A stretch of DNA of 64,000 nucleotides from an uncultured Fibrobacterota bacterium (GTDB taxonomy: Bacteria; Fibrobacterota; Chitinivibrionia; Chitinivibrionales; FEN-1185): NCBI GenBank assembly GCA_963753345.1, contig CAVWBU010000024.1, positions 160,001-224,000 of the forward strand, given 5' to 3'. Of the stretch, positions 17,119-24,278 are shown piece after piece. Position numbers and translations under genes: made by a program. Position 1 is the stretch's first letter; the number at the start of each line of letters is the position of its first letter. The notes under the pieces are model-generated. The model did not search any database and was not told the DNA's origin. It saw nothing but the letters and a program-made list of their open reading frames with translations.

Positions 17119-18033
17119 ATGTCGCGTCTTGTGAAAATCACGCTTTTCGCCCTTGGCTTTGTGCTCACAATGACTCTCCCTTCCGGAGCTCTGGTGGGAA
17201 TAGGGCTGCACTACGGCCTTGATTACACCCTCAGCATGAAAAACACCACGGGGTTCGGCGAGCAGGTGAGCTTCGACAGCCTCAAGCTTGACCTGGGACC
17301 AAATACAGGCAACGCCATACTAATCGGGCAGGACATTCCCGCCTATGTCACGCGATCAAATTTCAAGTCCGATTTCGCTTTCGGCGGCAAGATCTATGTC
17401 GACGTCATCCCGTTTATTGACGCGGTGGAGGTATCGGCCGATTTCGGCCTGTGGGATTATGTCGGTCAAATCAAATACCCGAATGGAATCGTAGACCCGA
17501 CTGCGGCAAATCTTGCAGCCCCATCCAATTTCACCTATGACTCGACAAAGCTCACGCTTGACAATTTCGGCCTTGGATACTTCGGGCTCAAGAACACGCC
17601 GTACGCCAAACTGCAGCTTGACGCCACCGTGCGCAAGTACATCACACGGCTTCCCAAAACGCTCAAGGTCTTCAATCTTTACGGCGGCGCAGGCCTCACC
17701 GTGAATTTCGCCACGCCCATGCTCTCCAGCAATCTCGTGGAGGATGTGATCAAGGAAAACGCGAACAGCAGTCTGGATCTTGGCACCCTTGGCCCCAACC
17801 TCCTCGACAACAGCCAGATCATGAAAGGCGTGGTGAATAAGATCATCAGCGGCCTCACCCAGCCCTCCTACGGGGCCCACATCGACCTCGGCTTCATGGT
17901 GAAGATCCCGGTTGTCCCCCTCGGCGTGTATGTGGACGGCAAGTTTATGATTCCCTTCGGGAAACTTGACAAGTACGTTGACATCGGGGGATTAGGCGTC
18001 CTCCTCAACGGCGGCGTTGCGCTGGCGTTCTGA
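17119..18033 (+). CDS. hypothetical outer-membrane beta-barrel protein
   Basis: Signal peptide, alternating beta-strand pattern, C-terminal Phe (GGVALAF); AAGGGGG RBS; TTGACA at 16995. Confidence 0.75.
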   Translation: MSRLVKITLFALGFVLTMTLPSGALVGIGLHYGLDYTLSMKNTTGFGEQVSFDSLKLDLGPNTGNAILIGQDIPAYVTRSNFKSDFAFGGKIYVDVIPFIDAVEVSADFGLWDYVGQIKYPNGIVDPTAANLAAPSNFTYDSTKLTLDNFGLGYFGLKNTPYAKLQLDATVRKYITRLPKTLKVFNLYGGAGLTVNFATPMLSSNLVEDVIKENANSSLDLGTLGPNLLDNSQIMKGVVNKIISGLTQPSYGAHIDLGFMVKIPVVPLGVYVDGKFMIPFGKLDKYVDIGGLGVLLNGGVALAF

Positions 18034-18046
18034 AAGGCACACATCC

Positions 18047-18544
18047 ATGGACAGACTCTGGGCGCCCTGGCGCATGAAATACATAAAGGAAAGCATTGAC
18101 AAGCCGGAAAACGGCTGCATCCTGTGCACAAAGCCCGGCCAGGCCGACGACAGAGCGAACCTCATCCTTCACAGAGGGAAAACCGCGTACGTCATCTGCA
18201 ACAAGTTTCCCTACAACAACGGCCACCTCATGGTGGTGCCCTATGCGCACACGGCCAGCCTCGACGACGTGGGCGATGAGTGCGGCCTGGAGCTGTGGAA
18301 GCTCATCGCGCTGTGCCGCAGGATCCTCGCCGATGCGTTTTCGCCCGACGGGTTCAACATCGGCATCAACCTCGGCCGCGTGGCCGGCGCCGGCATCGAC
18401 ACTCACCTGCATATCCACATTGTTCCGCGGTGGAACGGCGACGTCAATTTCATGCCGGTGATTGGGGAGACAAAAGTGATTTCGCAGGGGCTGGAAGAAA
18501 CGTATGAGGAGCTGGCGGGGAGGTTTACGGCGATAAAGGGCTGA
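18047..18544 (+). CDS. HIT-family hydrolase (Ap4A phosphorylase-like)
   Basis: LWAPWR, CILC, NKFPYNNGHLMVVP, HLHIHIVPRW. Confidence 0.93.
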   Translation: MDRLWAPWRMKYIKESIDKPENGCILCTKPGQADDRANLILHRGKTAYVICNKFPYNNGHLMVVPYAHTASLDDVGDECGLELWKLIALCRRILADAFSPDGFNIGINLGRVAGAGIDTHLHIHIVPRWNGDVNFMPVIGETKVISQGLEETYEELAGRFTAIKG

Positions 18545-19758: not shown

Positions 19759-20508
19759 TCACCCCATCTTCTCCGCCTGCCTGCCGGGAAACCATTCCCA
19801 TAACCCGATCGTTCCGTTTTCCATTTTCGCAAACGTGTATTTCCTGATCCATTCCCCTGTGTTAACGTACACCTTGTCGCCGTATCGCCGCAGTTCCGGA
19901 CGGTGCGTGTGCCCGAAAATCACGATATCGCTTCCCTCAAGCAGCTTCCTGGCGCAGCGCCGGTATTCCTCGAGCTTTTCCTCGGTGATCCAGTCGGCGA
20001 GCATTTTCCTGCTGTTGCCGGAGAAGAATGAGGCCAGCGGCACCCCGATATCGGGGTGAAGCAGCTTGTAAAGCCGTTGATTGAGCCGATTGCGGAGAAT
20101 GCGCTTGAGGATGCGGTATCCCACGTCTTTCTTGACCACGCCGTCGCCGTGAAACAGATGAACCCTTTTCCCCTGGATCGTTGTCTCGAAATGGTCGAGA
20201 TGAATGCGAAGGCCCACAATGTCTCGCAGGAAAGGTCCCAGGGCGAAGTCGTGATTGCCGGCGAGATAGTGGATTTCCACCCCCGATTCCACCAGACCGG
20301 CCAGCCGCGAAACGACCGCAACATAGTCCGGCCTTATCGCGTGCCGGTATTCGATCCAGAAATCGAAAAGATCGCCCACGATATACAGCGCTTCGGCGCC
20401 GTCTTCGATTTCGTCAAGAAACGACAAAAGGTGCTTCTGCCGGTCATCGTGGCCCGGCATTGTTATGCCGAGGTGCGCGTCGGAAATGAAATACGTTGCC
20501 GATTTCAT
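19759..20508 (-). CDS. lpxH: UDP-2,3-diacylglucosamine diphosphatase
   Basis: SDAHLG, GDLFDFW, GNHDF, HGD, GHTH metallophosphoesterase motifs. Confidence 0.88.
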   Translation of the reverse strand: MKSATYFISDAHLGITMPGHDDRQKHLLSFLDEIEDGAEALYIVGDLFDFWIEYRHAIRPDYVAVVSRLAGLVESGVEIHYLAGNHDFALGPFLRDIVGLRIHLDHFETTIQGKRVHLFHGDGVVKKDVGYRILKRILRNRLNQRLYKLLHPDIGVPLASFFSGNSRKMLADWITEEKLEEYRRCARKLLEGSDIVIFGHTHRPELRRYGDKVYVNTGEWIRKYTFAKMENGTIGLWEWFPGRQAEKMG

Positions 20509-20653
20509 GATAGTGCCCGATGTTCTTTACAAAGAGAGAAGACGAAATGCGGGGAATTTTTGGAAGGATGAGGCAGAGCGACCATCCTGGAATGCGCTCT
20601 CTGCGGCGTGCGCGTCCGGGGAGTGCCCCGTGCACCGCCGCCGTACGCTCCCG

Positions 20654-20833
20654 CTATTCCCACAGGTCGTCGGTGCTATCGAGATCGCTTGCCATGTCGC
20701 TGAAGTTTGCGTTTTCGTCGTGGAGCGTGCCGAAATTAAGTTCCCTCATATCTTCGGGGGTGTCGTCGTCGTCGTCCAATTCATCTACGTCGCGCAGGAT
20801 TTCGTCCGCGTCGAACTGTTCGTCCAGAATCAT
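20654..20833 (-). CDS. 59-aa highly acidic small protein (not in ORF track)
   Basis: MILDEQFDADEILRDVDELDDDDDTPEDMRELNFGTLHDENANFSDMASDLDSTDDLWE; GGAGGTGA RBS; consensus promoter upstream. Confidence 0.8.
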   Translation of the reverse strand: MILDEQFDADEILRDVDELDDDDDTPEDMRELNFGTLHDENANFSDMASDLDSTDDLWE

Positions 20834-20889
20834 TCGATCTCACCTCCCTTCCCATGATGCTCGCTTGGCGTTCCGTAATTTGCAAGAGA

Positions 20890-20918
20890 ATTATAATGGA
20901 TTTTCTAATCCGTGTCAA
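20890..20918 (-). promoter_or_regulatory. consensus sigma70 promoter
   Basis: TTGACA (20918-20913), 17-nt spacer, TATAAT (20895-20890), A-tract upstream of the -35. Confidence 0.88.
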
Positions 20919-21130
20919 TATTTTTTTTGAAAAGGTTTTCGCGCAAAATCCCCGAATTCCCGCCGGTGCGCAACGTCCCGCCACCGGCACTCGATACTAC
21001 GTCGTGCGTTTCCCGAATATTACTCCCCATGCCGAAAAAGAGACGGACATTCGACGGCGGCTTGCAGGCGTGGAACGGTGCCCGTGTGCGACTGATTTGC
21101 CGAGAGGATTATACCGAGGATCCGAGGAGC

Positions 21131-21391
21131 CTACGACGAGCCTTTTTTCTTGAAGATGTCGTTGATTTCCTGCTGCACTTTCGCTTTGTAAAGCACTTCT
21201 TCGAGGTCGTGGGCAATCTGCTTGCCTTCGCTGAGCATTGCCGCCCTTTTTTCGAGAAGTGCGATTTCAAGTTCGCGGCGCTTGTTTTCTTCTTTGCGTA
21301 TCTTGAAAACAAGGATCGAATGTCCCAGGGAGAGTCCCAGAAGCACGATGAGGATTTGAATAATCCAGAAAATGAGATATTCTTCGAACAT
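21131..21391 (-). CDS. small membrane protein with coiled-coil tail
   Basis: One N-terminal TM followed by an E/K-rich helix. Confidence 0.65.
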   Translation of the reverse strand: MFEEYLIFWIIQILIVLLGLSLGHSILVFKIRKEENKRRELEIALLEKRAAMLSEGKQIAHDLEEVLYKAKVQQEINDIFKKKGSS

Positions 21392-21530: not shown

Positions 21531-23990
21531 CTAGACCACCGGAAACGCATCGGTGTTGAAGTTCATCCTGCGCGCGAATTCGAGGAGCCGGATAAGGGTG
21601 TCCCGGTGCACCGAGCCCGGCGATTTCCGGAATTCCTGGTACAGGGGAACAAGCGTGGTTTCCATAATTGAGAAGAAAAGGTCTTCGGGCTTGCTTTTTG
21701 AAAACGGGATGCCGAACCGGTCGACGATGTTGAGCAGGTACCGCACACGGTCGGCGGAAACCTCGCTGAGCGTTTCGCCGAATATCTGGAGCTCCGAGAG
21801 GAGCAGGTCGAGCAGGAGCCGGGCGCTTTCGGCGTAATCGATGGTGATGCCGTACTTCCGCGACTTTTTCCATAAGTCAAGAAGCCTGGTCCACACCTCG
21901 TCCTCGCGGCCGTAAATCTCTATCTCGTTGATGGTGACGTTCCACGTCGCGGTGAGGACGTAGGCGATGGGCGCGGCGACGTACGGGGGCAGCGGCACGC
22001 CGAGGCTGGACAGCGAATCGAGTATCTTTTCGTTGCGCTCCATCCATGACGCGTACTTTTCGCGCGTGTCCTTCGCCATCTCGCCGAGAAAGAATCCGGC
22101 GAGTCTCACTTTCGATTCCTCGAACATCGACGAAAGGTTAAGCGCCACGGAGGTCGGATGGGCCTTGATGCCCTCGGGGTTCTCCGCGGCCGCATCGGCG
22201 GGAACGCACCACCCGTTAAGCAGGCCGTCCTCCTTTTCGAGGCACAGGGAAAAACGGCCGCGCTCCCCGCTGCTGCGGTTGCGTATGTCCGCCGTGAACA
22301 AGCCGCCGGCCTTGTGCCCGCCCGGCCGGGCACCCCCCGGAACCGACAGGGACACCTCGAAGCCGTAATAGTCGAACCTGCGCTCGGCCGCCTTGTCCGG
22401 CGCGACGGTCTTTTCCGCCGCCGCCGTAAAACAGAGCATTTCGAGATGGCGGAGGTAGGGCGCGACGGTCTCCCGGAAAATGGTGGCCCCGCTCTTTTCC
22501 GGAATGTTGCTTTTCGCGCCGGAAAGCATTTGCACGAACTCGTCGGTGACGCTTTCGCGCCGCAAGGGGTCGATGCCGAGCTGGAGCGCACGTCCGGCGT
22601 ACATGATGTTCTGCACGGTCTCTATGCCGCTCACGTCCGAGAAAAACCACCCGCACGAGGTGAACGAGAACAGCATGTACTTCTGGGCCTCGAGCAGGCG
22701 CCTCAGGGCGAGAGCGTCCTCGTCGGAACAGCCGGCGCGCACGCCATGCTTTACAATATGCGATTTGAATTCCGCGAGCGTGCGGGTGTCTGCAAACCCC
22801 ATATACGCATCGCGCAGTTTCCACGGATCGGCCGCGTGCGGCGAGACGGCCGCTTCGAATTCGTCGTCGACATGCTTCTGCAGGCGCTCAAACGCGGCGC
22901 GGAGCGGGCCGCGCCACGCCTGGTTCCACGAGGGCGGGCCGCCCGCCTTGCATCCGCAGTCCCGCGCCCACCTGCCCACGCCGTGGATGCAGCTCCATGC
23001 CGTGCCTTCGCCGAATTCGTTCTTGAGCGCCACCTCGAACACGGGAGGATTCTTCTCCAGATACCAGCCGAAATTGACCGGCACGATGTTCATTTCGGAC
23101 GCAAGCCTTCCAAAGAAATAGGCAAGGCACATGTCGCCGAACGGCTTGTGGTGACCGAACGTCTCGCCGTCGGTGGCGATCACCACCACCTGGTCGCGTT
23201 CGTCTGCGTCGTCGTAGCAGGAACGTATCTTCGCTCCGAGCGCGCCGGCGCTCGACAGGAGATCGCCGAAGCTCACCTCTCTCGACAGGCCTTCGTTGAA
23301 GAAAAACGCGTCGATGTGGCCGCCGAGCCTTGCGCCGGCCTGGTCGCGGTTGTAAATACGGTACGCGCGCTTCGTGTCGAAACCGCTCCCGGCGGGCCGC
23401 CACGGCCCCTTCCCGTCGAGGCCCCGGAATGTCTCGGCCTGGGCCGGCGACAGCACCACGAACCGCACGCCTTCCTCGATGAGGCACTGCACGGTCTCCA
23501 TGTTGATTGCCGTCTCGGCGAGCCAGATCCCTTCGCATTCGCGTTTGTAACGCGACCGGAAGAATTCCTTTGCCCAGCGTATCTGCGTTAGTTTGTCCCG
23601 CCGGGACGCGAGCGGCATAATCACGTGGTTGTACACCTGGGCCACGGCATTGCCGTGCCCGCCCCGGGCCGCGCAGGTCTCCCGGTCCGCCGCCACGATC
23701 CGCGCCGTGACCTTCGGGTGGTTCTTTTCGAGCCACCGAAAGAGCGTGGGGCCGAAGTTGTGGCTCATGTGCAGGTAGTTGTTGCGTATGTCAACGATCA
23801 TGCCGCGCTGGTCGAGGATGCGCGAGAAGGCATTGGGCCGGTAGCACTGGTCGTAGATGCGCTCGTTCCAGTCGTGGTAGGGCGACGCGGAACCCTGTTT
23901 TTCTATAAAGTCAAGCCACGGGTTTTCGCGCGGCGGCTGGTAGAAATGGCCGTGGATCACCACGTACCGGTTCGCGGCGCCGCCCGTCAT
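21531..23990 (-). CDS. GH57-related DUF3536 domain protein
   Basis: IHGHFYQPPRENPW, YHDWNERI, GIWLAETA, ATDGETFGHH, SFTSCGWFF; the ORF-track N-terminal extension runs into a repeat and is not credible. Confidence 0.9.
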   Translation of the reverse strand: MTGGAANRYVVIHGHFYQPPRENPWLDFIEKQGSASPYHDWNERIYDQCYRPNAFSRILDQRGMIVDIRNNYLHMSHNFGPTLFRWLEKNHPKVTARIVAADRETCAARGGHGNAVAQVYNHVIMPLASRRDKLTQIRWAKEFFRSRYKRECEGIWLAETAINMETVQCLIEEGVRFVVLSPAQAETFRGLDGKGPWRPAGSGFDTKRAYRIYNRDQAGARLGGHIDAFFFNEGLSREVSFGDLLSSAGALGAKIRSCYDDADERDQVVVIATDGETFGHHKPFGDMCLAYFFGRLASEMNIVPVNFGWYLEKNPPVFEVALKNEFGEGTAWSCIHGVGRWARDCGCKAGGPPSWNQAWRGPLRAAFERLQKHVDDEFEAAVSPHAADPWKLRDAYMGFADTRTLAEFKSHIVKHGVRAGCSDEDALALRRLLEAQKYMLFSFTSCGWFFSDVSGIETVQNIMYAGRALQLGIDPLRRESVTDEFVQMLSGAKSNIPEKSGATIFRETVAPYLRHLEMLCFTAAAEKTVAPDKAAERRFDYYGFEVSLSVPGGARPGGHKAGGLFTADIRNRSSGERGRFSLCLEKEDGLLNGWCVPADAAAENPEGIKAHPTSVALNLSSMFEESKVRLAGFFLGEMAKDTREKYASWMERNEKILDSLSSLGVPLPPYVAAPIAYVLTATWNVTINEIEIYGREDEVWTRLLDLWKKSRKYGITIDYAESARLLLDLLLSELQIFGETLSEVSADRVRYLLNIVDRFGIPFSKSKPEDLFFSIMETTLVPLYQEFRKSPGSVHRDTLIRLLEFARRMNFNTDAFPVV

Positions 23991-24122
23991 ACTACACCGC
24001 CCGGGCCCGCCGGGGGTAATTCGCGGAACCTCGGGGAAAATACGCCTGCTCTTTTGTGGATGATCGCGCGTGCGGCCGGCCTGGTGCTCATGGTTCTCCG
24101 GGTGAAAGAAATCCGATCCAAT

Positions 24123-24278
24123 CGGTGGAGCCCCGCCGACAGGAGTCGGCGGCACCAAAAATTTCCTTCGGCTCCGGGAGCCGAAGGCTGCTTGTGCGAC
24201 GCTTCGGCGTCCCCGAAGGGGGGCGACATCCCGAAGCAGAAGGCCCCCGACAAAATCGGGGGCCTTCTGCGTAGTGGG
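24123..24278 (-). mobile_element. palindromic non-autonomous element (PATE/MITE-like), family C copy 1
   Basis: 122 bp (24123-24244) match 49064-49185 with one mismatch; four hairpins; preceded by TTTTA on the minus strand. Confidence 0.85.

Follow-up and report, generated by a model that had tools for sequence, protein, structure and literature searches.

Small proteins with a high negative charge are known to act at nucleic-acid-binding sites, as seen with the phage DNA mimics Ocr and Ugi. Polyacidic, disordered proteins of about 60–110 amino acids (a.a) also occur in eukaryotes, including DSS1/Sem1 and prothymosin-alpha, with the aromatic anchors of DSS1 docking on the basic grooves of its partners. 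In Firmicutes, the delta subunit of RNA polymerase (RNAP; RpoE) combines a folded N-terminal RNAP-anchoring domain with a polyanionic disordered segment. Here, we describe a gene for a 59-a.a hyper-acidic protein, located upstream of an lpxH-type gene in a 64,000-nucleotide (nt) stretch of DNA from an uncultured Fibrobacterota bacterium (assembly GCA_963753345.1, contig CAVWBU010000024.1, positions 160,001–224,000; hereafter, the window). Among bacterial proteins with an assigned action, SutA of Pseudomonas aeruginosa is described as small, acidic and largely disordered; it binds the beta1 domain of RNAP and is thought to work via disordered acidic regions nearing the nucleic-acid-binding site, as a slow-growth regulator (bioRxiv 10.1101/423384). 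MsyB of Escherichia coli is an acidic protein reported as an inhibitor of HU (bioRxiv 10.1101/2025.02.25.640118), DMP12 of Neisseria is an acidic HU-binding protein (PMC3643605), and Gp44 of phage SPO1 is an acidic inhibitor of RNAP (PMC8208478).

The acidic protein of the window is, like SutA, small, acidic, mostly disordered (as predicted) and stand-alone. SutA has a central conserved helix and binds RNAP beta1. The two come from different taxa and no sequence relation was detected (a profile search returned only the acidic family), and while SutA regulates slow growth, the acidic gene carries constitutive-looking consensus signals. MsyB and DMP12 are chromosomal acidic proteins reported to bind the abundant, basic HU and keep it off DNA, the kind of target suited to an abundant polyanion. 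The acidic protein displayed no homology to either in Pfam and PDB profile searches. Both MsyB and DMP12 are folded and roughly twice its size. Ocr, Ugi and Gp44 are phage-encoded with mostly rigid folds, whereas the acidic gene is chromosomal, order-wide, vertically inherited and its product is predicted to be disordered. DSS1/Sem1 and prothymosin-alpha belong to another domain of life and have no sequence relation to the acidic protein, leaving an analogy of mechanism only. The RNAP delta subunit shares a polyanionic disordered character with the acidic protein, which is 59 a.a long and has no Pfam domain; identity with delta was rejected, given zero Pfam families and a length that leaves no room for an N-terminal RNAP-binding domain.

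The gene and its expression signals, in the direction of transcription, are as follows (SD, Shine–Dalgarno sequence; CDS, coding sequence):

20919..20940, minus strand: A/T-rich, UP-element-like stretch with an A8 tract (20928-20921), abutting the −35 hexamer on its upstream side
20913..20918 (read 20918-20913), minus strand: −35 hexamer TTGACA, part of a site scanned as 12/12 with a spacer of 17 nt
20890..20895 (read 20895-20890), minus strand: −10 hexamer TATAAT, from the promoter scan
20834..20889, minus strand: 5′ leader of ~50 nt without conserved secondary structure, including the SD
20847-20840, minus strand: SD GGAGGTGA, with the end of GGAGG 9 nt 5′ of the ATG at 20833
20654..20833, minus strand: CDS of the 59-a.a hyper-acidic protein, ATG at 20833, TAG stop (20656-20654) included

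The encoded protein, MILDEQFDADEILRDVDELDDDDDTPEDMRELNFGTLHDENANFSDMASDLDSTDDLWE (reading MILDEQ...DDLWE), comprises 17 D and 7 E, i.e., 24 acidic residues of 59, with two R and no K, in line with the length and composition given in a preliminary description of the window. It has a pI of 4.05 and a charge of about −22 at pH 7, and is the sole open reading frame (ORF) of 40–100 a.a in the genome with D+E ≥ 33% and K+R ≤ 8%. An open full-length frame was present in 40 of 41 related genomes (E down to 1e-32), in contrast to the two most extreme non-ribosomal hyper-basic small ORFs of the genome, each of which was found in 0 of 40 relatives. The ratio of nonsynonymous to synonymous change (dN/dS) was 0.026–0.105 in the 12 pairs with computable dS from seven orthologues of 59 codons, with pS values of 0.5–0.7 among those seven, such that synonymous sites are near saturation. 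Judged from this substitution pattern, the acidic ORF is a true protein gene under strong purifying selection, as the preliminary description had supposed.

In an alignment of 28 orthologues and paralogues, D10, L13, E31, L32 and F34 were invariant, and D8, E11, R14, D15, D17, D50 and W58 were kept in at least 90% of the sequences, which bears out the conservation of the frame, the RELNFG motif (E31, L32 and F34) and the terminal W that the preliminary description had singled out. Across a larger set of 146 non-redundant family sequences, E31 was present in 146, D10 in 145, L13 in 144, F34 in 139, D8 in 136 and R14 in 131, while W58 was kept in 100; another 43 have a gap at this position, mostly because they are paralogues with a shorter C-terminus. 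The family displays three strongly conserved acidic-hydrophobic motifs, FDADEILRD at the N-terminus, (M)RELNFG in the center, and NANFSDMASDLD..(E/D)DLWE at the C-terminus. The acidic run between the first and second motifs varies in both sequence and length, with its acidity kept. Conserved positions are mostly hydrophobic or aromatic anchors in acidic surroundings, and the C-terminal anchors (F44, M47/A48 and L51) follow an i, i+3/4, i+7 spacing as read from the alignment.

These data bear on an RNA-only role, where the transcript would act as an lpxH leader, an expression platform or a small RNA, with the peptide being incidental. Such a role would fit the lack of a promoter-like site between the ORF and lpxH and the presence of a hairpin or terminator in the spacer (see below). 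It is opposed by dN/dS values of 0.03–0.1 with saturated synonymous change, and by the retention of the protein motifs at 40% overall identity together with an invariant SD. The region also gave no Rfam family match (one hit of 23.9 bits vs a gathering score of 80), and RNAalifold yielded 0 predicted pairs and no conserved structure over 14 aligned leaders, where GGAGGTGA, with the SD invariant, is the sole conserved block. Because purifying selection acts on the protein, the RNA-only or lpxH-leader-only reading is refuted, and we regard it as highly improbable.

A non-specific polyanion lacking a dedicated partner, such as a cytoplasmic buffer of divalent cations or a general anti-aggregation ('entropic bristle') protein, would accommodate the extreme Asp content and the variable acidic spacer. 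Many neighbors of family members encode metal-dependent enzymes (LpxH, GT2, HAD, HD and TPM), and one distant paralogue (L126) lies 48 nt ahead of two HSP20 genes, both of which would agree with this role; however, metal-dependent neighbors are common by chance. The best-conserved residues are also hydrophobic or aromatic, plus an Arg, with the most acidic run being the least conserved, a pattern which argues for specific docking over bulk charge. We therefore consider a purely non-specific role unlikely.

AlphaFold2, supplied with the 28-row alignment, returned a mean pLDDT of 66 and a pTM of 0.19 with no tertiary packing, and the only helices were three short ones (residues 9–13, 40–50 and 54–58). 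The acidic protein is thus predicted to be disordered, with no stable fold in the models; a fold could form upon binding or oligomerization. From the anchor pattern, we infer the signature of short linear motifs that would fold on a partner. On balance, we lean towards the acidic protein being an abundant polyanionic ligand that would fold upon binding to a conserved partner.

Other identities suggested by a small acidic protein were rejected. Pup/UBact-type modifiers use a C-terminal Gly-Gly-Gln/Glu for conjugation, whereas the acidic protein ends in DDLWE (in the family, (E/D)DLWE). The acidic tail of SSB has a D-D-D-I-P-F-like C-terminal tip carried on an OB-fold protein; the acidic protein stands alone at 59 a.a, has no OB fold or fused forms, and its DLWE tip is acidic-aromatic but different. 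An acyl carrier protein, which would have a PP-binding domain with the Ser motif for phosphopantetheine attachment, was dismissed given no Pfam hit at E ≤ 0.1. Identity with the anti-sigma-28 factor FlgM was likewise rejected, as PF04316 gave no hit to the acidic protein, nor to anything in the genome at E ≤ 1. In the same genome (94% complete), no FliA scored over its cut-off (best 119.6 bits vs 189.6) and no FHIPEP/FlhA was found at E ≤ 1e-10, and the bacterium appears to be without flagella.

The expression signals of the acidic gene were recovered as the preliminary description had reported them, i.e., TTGACA-17-TATAAT (12/12 in the promoter scan) with the upstream A-tract at 20928-20921 and the ribosome-binding site GGAGGTGA. 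Across the whole 4.5-Mb genome (56% G+C), we counted six perfect TTGACA-N16-18-TATAAT sites vs 0.58 expected from base composition, indicating that these signals are not due to chance. Bases A and T account for 17–18 of the 20–25 bases preceding the −35, and this stretch may function as an UP element. The promoter scan of the minus strand between 19500 and 22000 gave promoter-like sites at 20918 and 21484 only. The other five perfect sites, all with 17-nt spacers, lie at C16:112091(-), C26:276642(-), C28:71033(+), C24:68474(-) and C34:65396(-). Three of these precede a 95-a.a Cys-rich ORF with an N-terminal hydrophobic segment, a 163-a.a ORF (Fur-family regulator-like by eye) and a prepilin-like ORF, respectively; the remaining two have no obvious ORF within 200 nt.

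To place these signals in the family, they were counted over 74 non-redundant loci (≥60 bits), including a few paralogues and one locus cut by a contig end. A sigma-70-like site of at least 10/12 was present within 170 nt upstream in 70 of the 74 loci, at least 11/12 in 57, and 12/12 in nine. The −35 of the best upstream site was TTGACA in nearly all orthologous loci, the −10 was TATAAT or TATTAT in most, and the distance from the end of the −10 to the start codon was about 55 nt in most loci. An A/T-rich stretch ahead of the −35 was likewise seen in most orthologous loci, and an SD in 68 of the 74 loci. A pattern search of the assembly did not recover the 3′ end of the 16S rRNA, so SD/anti-SD pairing is assumed for this organism. 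Given that both promoter and SD are conserved across the order, high expression of the acidic gene may fairly be inferred from these signals.

Using the family profile, the acidic gene was identified in 77 of 80 genomes of the order, across nine families, or 78 of 81 with the window's own genome included. In the rest of Fibrobacterota (120 genomes from eleven other families), a single match was obtained (E 8e-4, inside a 976-a.a frame), which is most likely spurious. Public relatives are titled Chitinivibrionales, Chitinispirillales, Chitinispirillaceae or Chitinivibrionia, or loosely as 'Fibrobacter/Fibrobacteres' metagenome-assembled genomes (MAGs), and of the 71 loci from a search of genome contigs, nearly all carried labels beginning with Chitinivibrio, Chitinispirill or Fibrobacter, with three labelled only as bacterium. 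Only 60 proteins at E ≤ 1e-3 came out of an exhaustive profile search covering 1.84 billion cluster representatives. With one exception they are small (48–106 a.a), and the family motifs were seen in the 30 small ones that were read. The lone long match (1317 a.a) is a repetitive protein without an aligned stretch. Two longer hits (122 and 124 a.a), considered as possible fused forms, proved to be read-through of the leader from an upstream GTG and not fusions.

No family for the acidic protein was found in Pfam or NCBIfam at E ≤ 0.1, and 0 of 28 family members were matched in PHROGs and PADLOC. A profile of the 28 sequences compared to all PDB chains gave a sole hit at E 3.9, to an unrelated segment of PPIL4. 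In the ESM Atlas, the best feature scores were 0.84 and below, all to unnamed clusters, and a 'named' search gave nothing. Near-identical proteins in public collections are annotated as 'hypothetical protein'. Literature searches on a Chitinivibrionia acidic protein, and on LpxH with an acidic intrinsically disordered protein, found no paper on the family, nor is such a protein mentioned in the titles and opening parts of the abstracts on the Chitinivibrio alkaliphilus proteome and Chitinivibrionales metatranscriptomes. By these sequence comparisons, the acidic gene founds an orphan family that is restricted to a single order of Fibrobacterota (public labels Chitinivibrionales/Chitinispirillales), and looks like an innovation of that order, set at the head of the lpxH unit. 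The kind of protein (a small acidic disordered binder) is known, while the family, the order-wide conservation of its promoter and its linkage to lpxH are new.

The lpxH unit continues downstream of the acidic gene with the following features:

20509..20653, minus strand: intergenic spacer to lpxH, 145 nt, with no sigma-70-like promoter detected in the promoter scan
20603..20641 (read 20641-20603), minus strand: GC-rich bulged stem-loop 3′ of the stop codon, without a T-run, from fold prediction
19759..20508, minus strand: lpxH-type UDP-2,3-diacylglucosamine diphosphatase gene, 249 a.a (Metallophos/Metallophos_2)
18017..18544, plus strand: HIT-family gene convergent on lpxH (HIT domain, E 1.4e-11)

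The downstream calcineurin-like metallophosphoesterase is most likely LpxH, though its scores lie below the curated cut-offs (NF003743, E 1.6e-30, 106 bits vs a cut-off of 134; TIGR01854, E 3e-27, 95 bits vs 190). It is the sole TIGR01854 match in the genome, which encodes LpxC elsewhere, and the catalytic residues D10, H12, D46, N85, H120, H200 and H202 are invariant among 26 LpxH orthologues. A Metallophos gene is next downstream on the same strand in 27 of 29 primary loci, and in the two exceptions (L021 and L029) the N-terminal motif of LpxH can still be recognized. Over the 74 loci, an LpxH-type N-terminal motif was found within 500 nt in 69, upholding the synteny with lpxH raised in the preliminary description. 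By contrast, the upstream neighbor varies by family (GH57-DUF3536, ArgJ, GlgC, Omp85, GH15, RsmG and others).

The spacer between the acidic gene and lpxH spans 22–433 nt in relatives, while in the most divergent loci (L024–L026) lpxH starts at −6 to +10 nt relative to the stop of the acidic gene. In two of these (L024:3171 and L025:3171), the lpxH ATG lies inside GAATGG (Glu-Trp codons), the last codons of the acidic gene, and in L026 the gap is 10 nt. The arrangement in L024 and L025 suggests translational coupling of the two genes. All three loci come from small genomes (2.2–2.7 Mb) of one family. The acidic gene probably also supplies the lpxH promoter.

The GC-rich hairpin noted in the preliminary description is present at 20641-20603, as one bulged stem-loop within a two-hairpin intergenic fold and lacking a T-run (minimum free energy −55.9 kcal/mol; z = −2.05; 7 of 200 shuffles fold as well). 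The stem-loop is real yet exceeds chance only modestly. Lacking a T-run, and with no terminator listed there by the scan, it does not qualify as a canonical terminator. Among 61 non-redundant orthologous loci, 38 have a hairpin with a T-run between the acidic gene and lpxH; none of the five loci from the window's own genus do, having instead a GC-rich hairpin without a T-run.

This linkage raises the prospect of an LpxH-specific subunit. By posing as the anionic surface of a membrane or lipid, the acidic protein would bind LpxH, a peripheral-membrane metallophosphoesterase, and hold it in solution or in an inactive state, thereby controlling lipid A synthesis; PP1-type phosphatases and their small disordered regulators offer an analogy. 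The constant presence of lpxH downstream across the order while the upstream neighbor changes, and the overlapping or abutting start and stop in L024–L026, are in its favor. Three genomes of the order without the acidic gene (G018, G133 and G162; 96%, 70% and 59% complete, respectively) also gave no lpxH match at E ≤ 1e-10, which counts in its favor if a joint loss but may simply reflect a single locus missing from the assemblies. In five out-group Fibrobacterota genomes, lpxH is present in each and no small acidic ORF precedes it, which is also in its favor. When the LpxH proteins of the order were compared to five out-group LpxH, only two order-specific conserved columns emerged, I52 and R59; the latter is a basic residue and would suit an acidic ligand, while the near-absence of change on the LpxH surface speaks against a dedicated interface. 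The net charge of LpxH is only about +2 (window genome), the paralogues of the acidic protein do not lie beside lpxH, and the terminator-like element in 38 of 61 loci, combined with the near-consensus promoter, would leave the small protein in large excess over LpxH. These last four points count equally against an acidic ligand that folds on LpxH, and we consider the LpxH-specific subunit rather unlikely.

Paralogues of the acidic gene were found in the window's genome and in others. The second copy in the same genome (G000:C46:323-484, locus L030) encodes 54 a.a and is 64% identical; it lacks the LWE tip, its sequence closing with ...DLNNE. Upstream of this copy there is no consensus promoter, and downstream are genes for an SDR and a pentapeptide-repeat protein. 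Other genomes carry up to four copies in recognizable subtypes. One subtype (…EL.FESG…DLWE/DLLE) is convergent to GT2-TPR glycosyltransferase genes (L111, L112, L114 and L119), another (…SPEELFSLD) lies 220–350 nt after a GT4 glycosyltransferase gene (L117, L120 and L124), and the L123 paralogue is 55 nt ahead of a TPM-domain gene. One genome (G016) has three extra paralogues (G016:C398:5-166, G016:C372:5-166 and G016:C322:1287-1472), two of which lie at the extremities of short contigs, a placement suggestive of repeats or of DNA that assembles poorly. A distant paralogue of ~40% identity (L031; G035:C11, L031:2117-3171) starts 30 nt after a 282-a.a sigma-70-family gene on the same strand, which contains regions 1.2, 2, 3 and 4; no other locus examined was linked to a sigma gene. 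None of the paralogues listed (the second copy, the L111–L126 subtypes and L031) adjoins lpxH, and they share no single context theme. A loose theme of envelope enzymes among their neighbors is possible and could be chance.

The preliminary description took its suggestion of a nucleic-acid mimic, or a modulator of RNAP, the nucleoid or the ribosome, solely from the charge of the protein, and we regard it as a tentative possibility. Here, the polyanion would sit on the surface with which an abundant protein, HU or RNAP for instance, binds DNA or RNA, and tune the availability of that protein. A net charge of −22 with no Lys and the conserved strong expression signals would fit an abundant target, one distant paralogue (L031) follows a sigma-70-family gene, and published small acidic proteins act in this manner (SutA on RNAP, MsyB and DMP12 on HU, and SPO1 Gp44 on RNAP, as cited above). 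Nonetheless, there is no homology to a solved mimic (best PDB profile hit E 3.9), AlphaFold2 predicted no rigid scaffold for a DNA-like charge array, and no nucleic-acid-binding gene recurs in the neighborhood beyond the one sigma-linked paralogue; these points apply likewise to a folding ligand with a nucleic-acid-type target.

A more specific form, sigma region 1.1 supplied in trans, was not supported. Five sigma-70-family genes with region 1.2 are present in the genome (G000; C49:21812, C48:2428, C52:51668, C26:127248 and C24:278620), one of 512 a.a (RpoD, likely the primary sigma factor) and four of 279–318 a.a that start directly at region 1.2. The long RpoD already begins with a region-1.1-like segment by eye, so that a trans-acting region 1.1 is unneeded for RpoD, and sigma linkage is limited to the one paralogue. 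PF03979 was not found in the genome, but was likewise missed in most control genomes.

Returning to the polyanionic ligand that would fold on a conserved partner, we propose that the anchors F7, I12/L13, L32, F34, F44, M47, L51 and L57/W58 would insert into grooves of the partner while the carboxylates cover its adjacent basic surface. In doing so, the acidic protein would compete with the natural polyanionic ligand of the partner, be it a nucleic acid or the anionic surface of a membrane or lipid. The acidic gene would form the promoter-proximal cistron of the lpxH unit, with the hairpin or terminator between the genes keeping the small protein abundant and LpxH scarce. Gene context points to LpxH as the partner, while charge and abundance point to a nucleic-acid-binding protein; we rate an HU- or RNAP-type protein as a candidate worth keeping in view and LpxH as a slightly weaker one, with the larger share left to other proteins.

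Several points weigh against this proposal. The adjacency of the acidic gene and lpxH could be explained solely by the dependence of lpxH on the upstream promoter. A consensus-perfect promoter is no guarantee of maximal output, and the public sequencing runs listed for the locus comprise 15 of DNA and 0 of RNA, such that abundance is read from the signals alone. The acidic ORF has a codon adaptation index (CAI) of 0.77, the 92nd percentile of long ORFs (reference: 23 ribosomal-cluster ORFs), but because ribosomal genes themselves score 0.64–0.79 and codon bias is weak genome-wide, codon usage is uninformative on expression here. A complex prediction of LpxH with the acidic protein scored 0.00 in two runs without controls and carries no weight either way. 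A separate screen for a small hyper-basic partner shared across the order left 40 ORFs behind an SD; these were largely ribosomal proteins or spurious frames rich in Arg, and no candidate stood out.

The remaining neighbors of the locus are of general interest. Of the 29 annotated primary loci, about half have a convergent HIT gene after lpxH. Between the GH57 gene and the promoter of the acidic gene lies an ORF of 86 a.a (21131-21391, minus strand) whose N-terminal segment is hydrophobic and whose charged tail looks helical, and for which no family was hit (best Pfam E 0.085). Further upstream, an ORF of 875 a.a (21531-24158, minus strand) contains GH57 and DUF3536 domains; as these begin only at about residue 130, its TTG start is probably too far upstream. 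A GH57-DUF3536 gene is also the upstream neighbor in several other families of the order (L015, L017 and L020).

Small proteins below the thresholds of gene callers and annotation are a blind spot, and the acidic gene provides unusually clean evidence of importance for one of them, being near-universal in the order, under strong purifying selection, preceded by a perfect promoter of which the genome has only six, and in no catalogued family. If LpxH is the target, the acidic protein would represent a new control point in lipid A synthesis. As a dedicated regulatory or chaperone partner, which we think improbable, it would act as a polyanionic 'membrane-surface mimic', keeping the peripheral enzyme inactive or away from the membrane. 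By our searches, it would then be the first protein found to regulate the LpxH step, and would stand as a bacterial equivalent of the disordered proteins that regulate PP1-type metallophosphatases. If the target is HU, RNAP or a similar hub, it would instead act as a global regulator particular to a lineage of polysaccharide degraders from peat, sediments, digesters and termite guts. Disordered proteins with short linear motifs are familiar from eukaryotes, far fewer having been described in bacteria, and with either target the acidic protein would offer a compact bacterial example of one working through such motifs.

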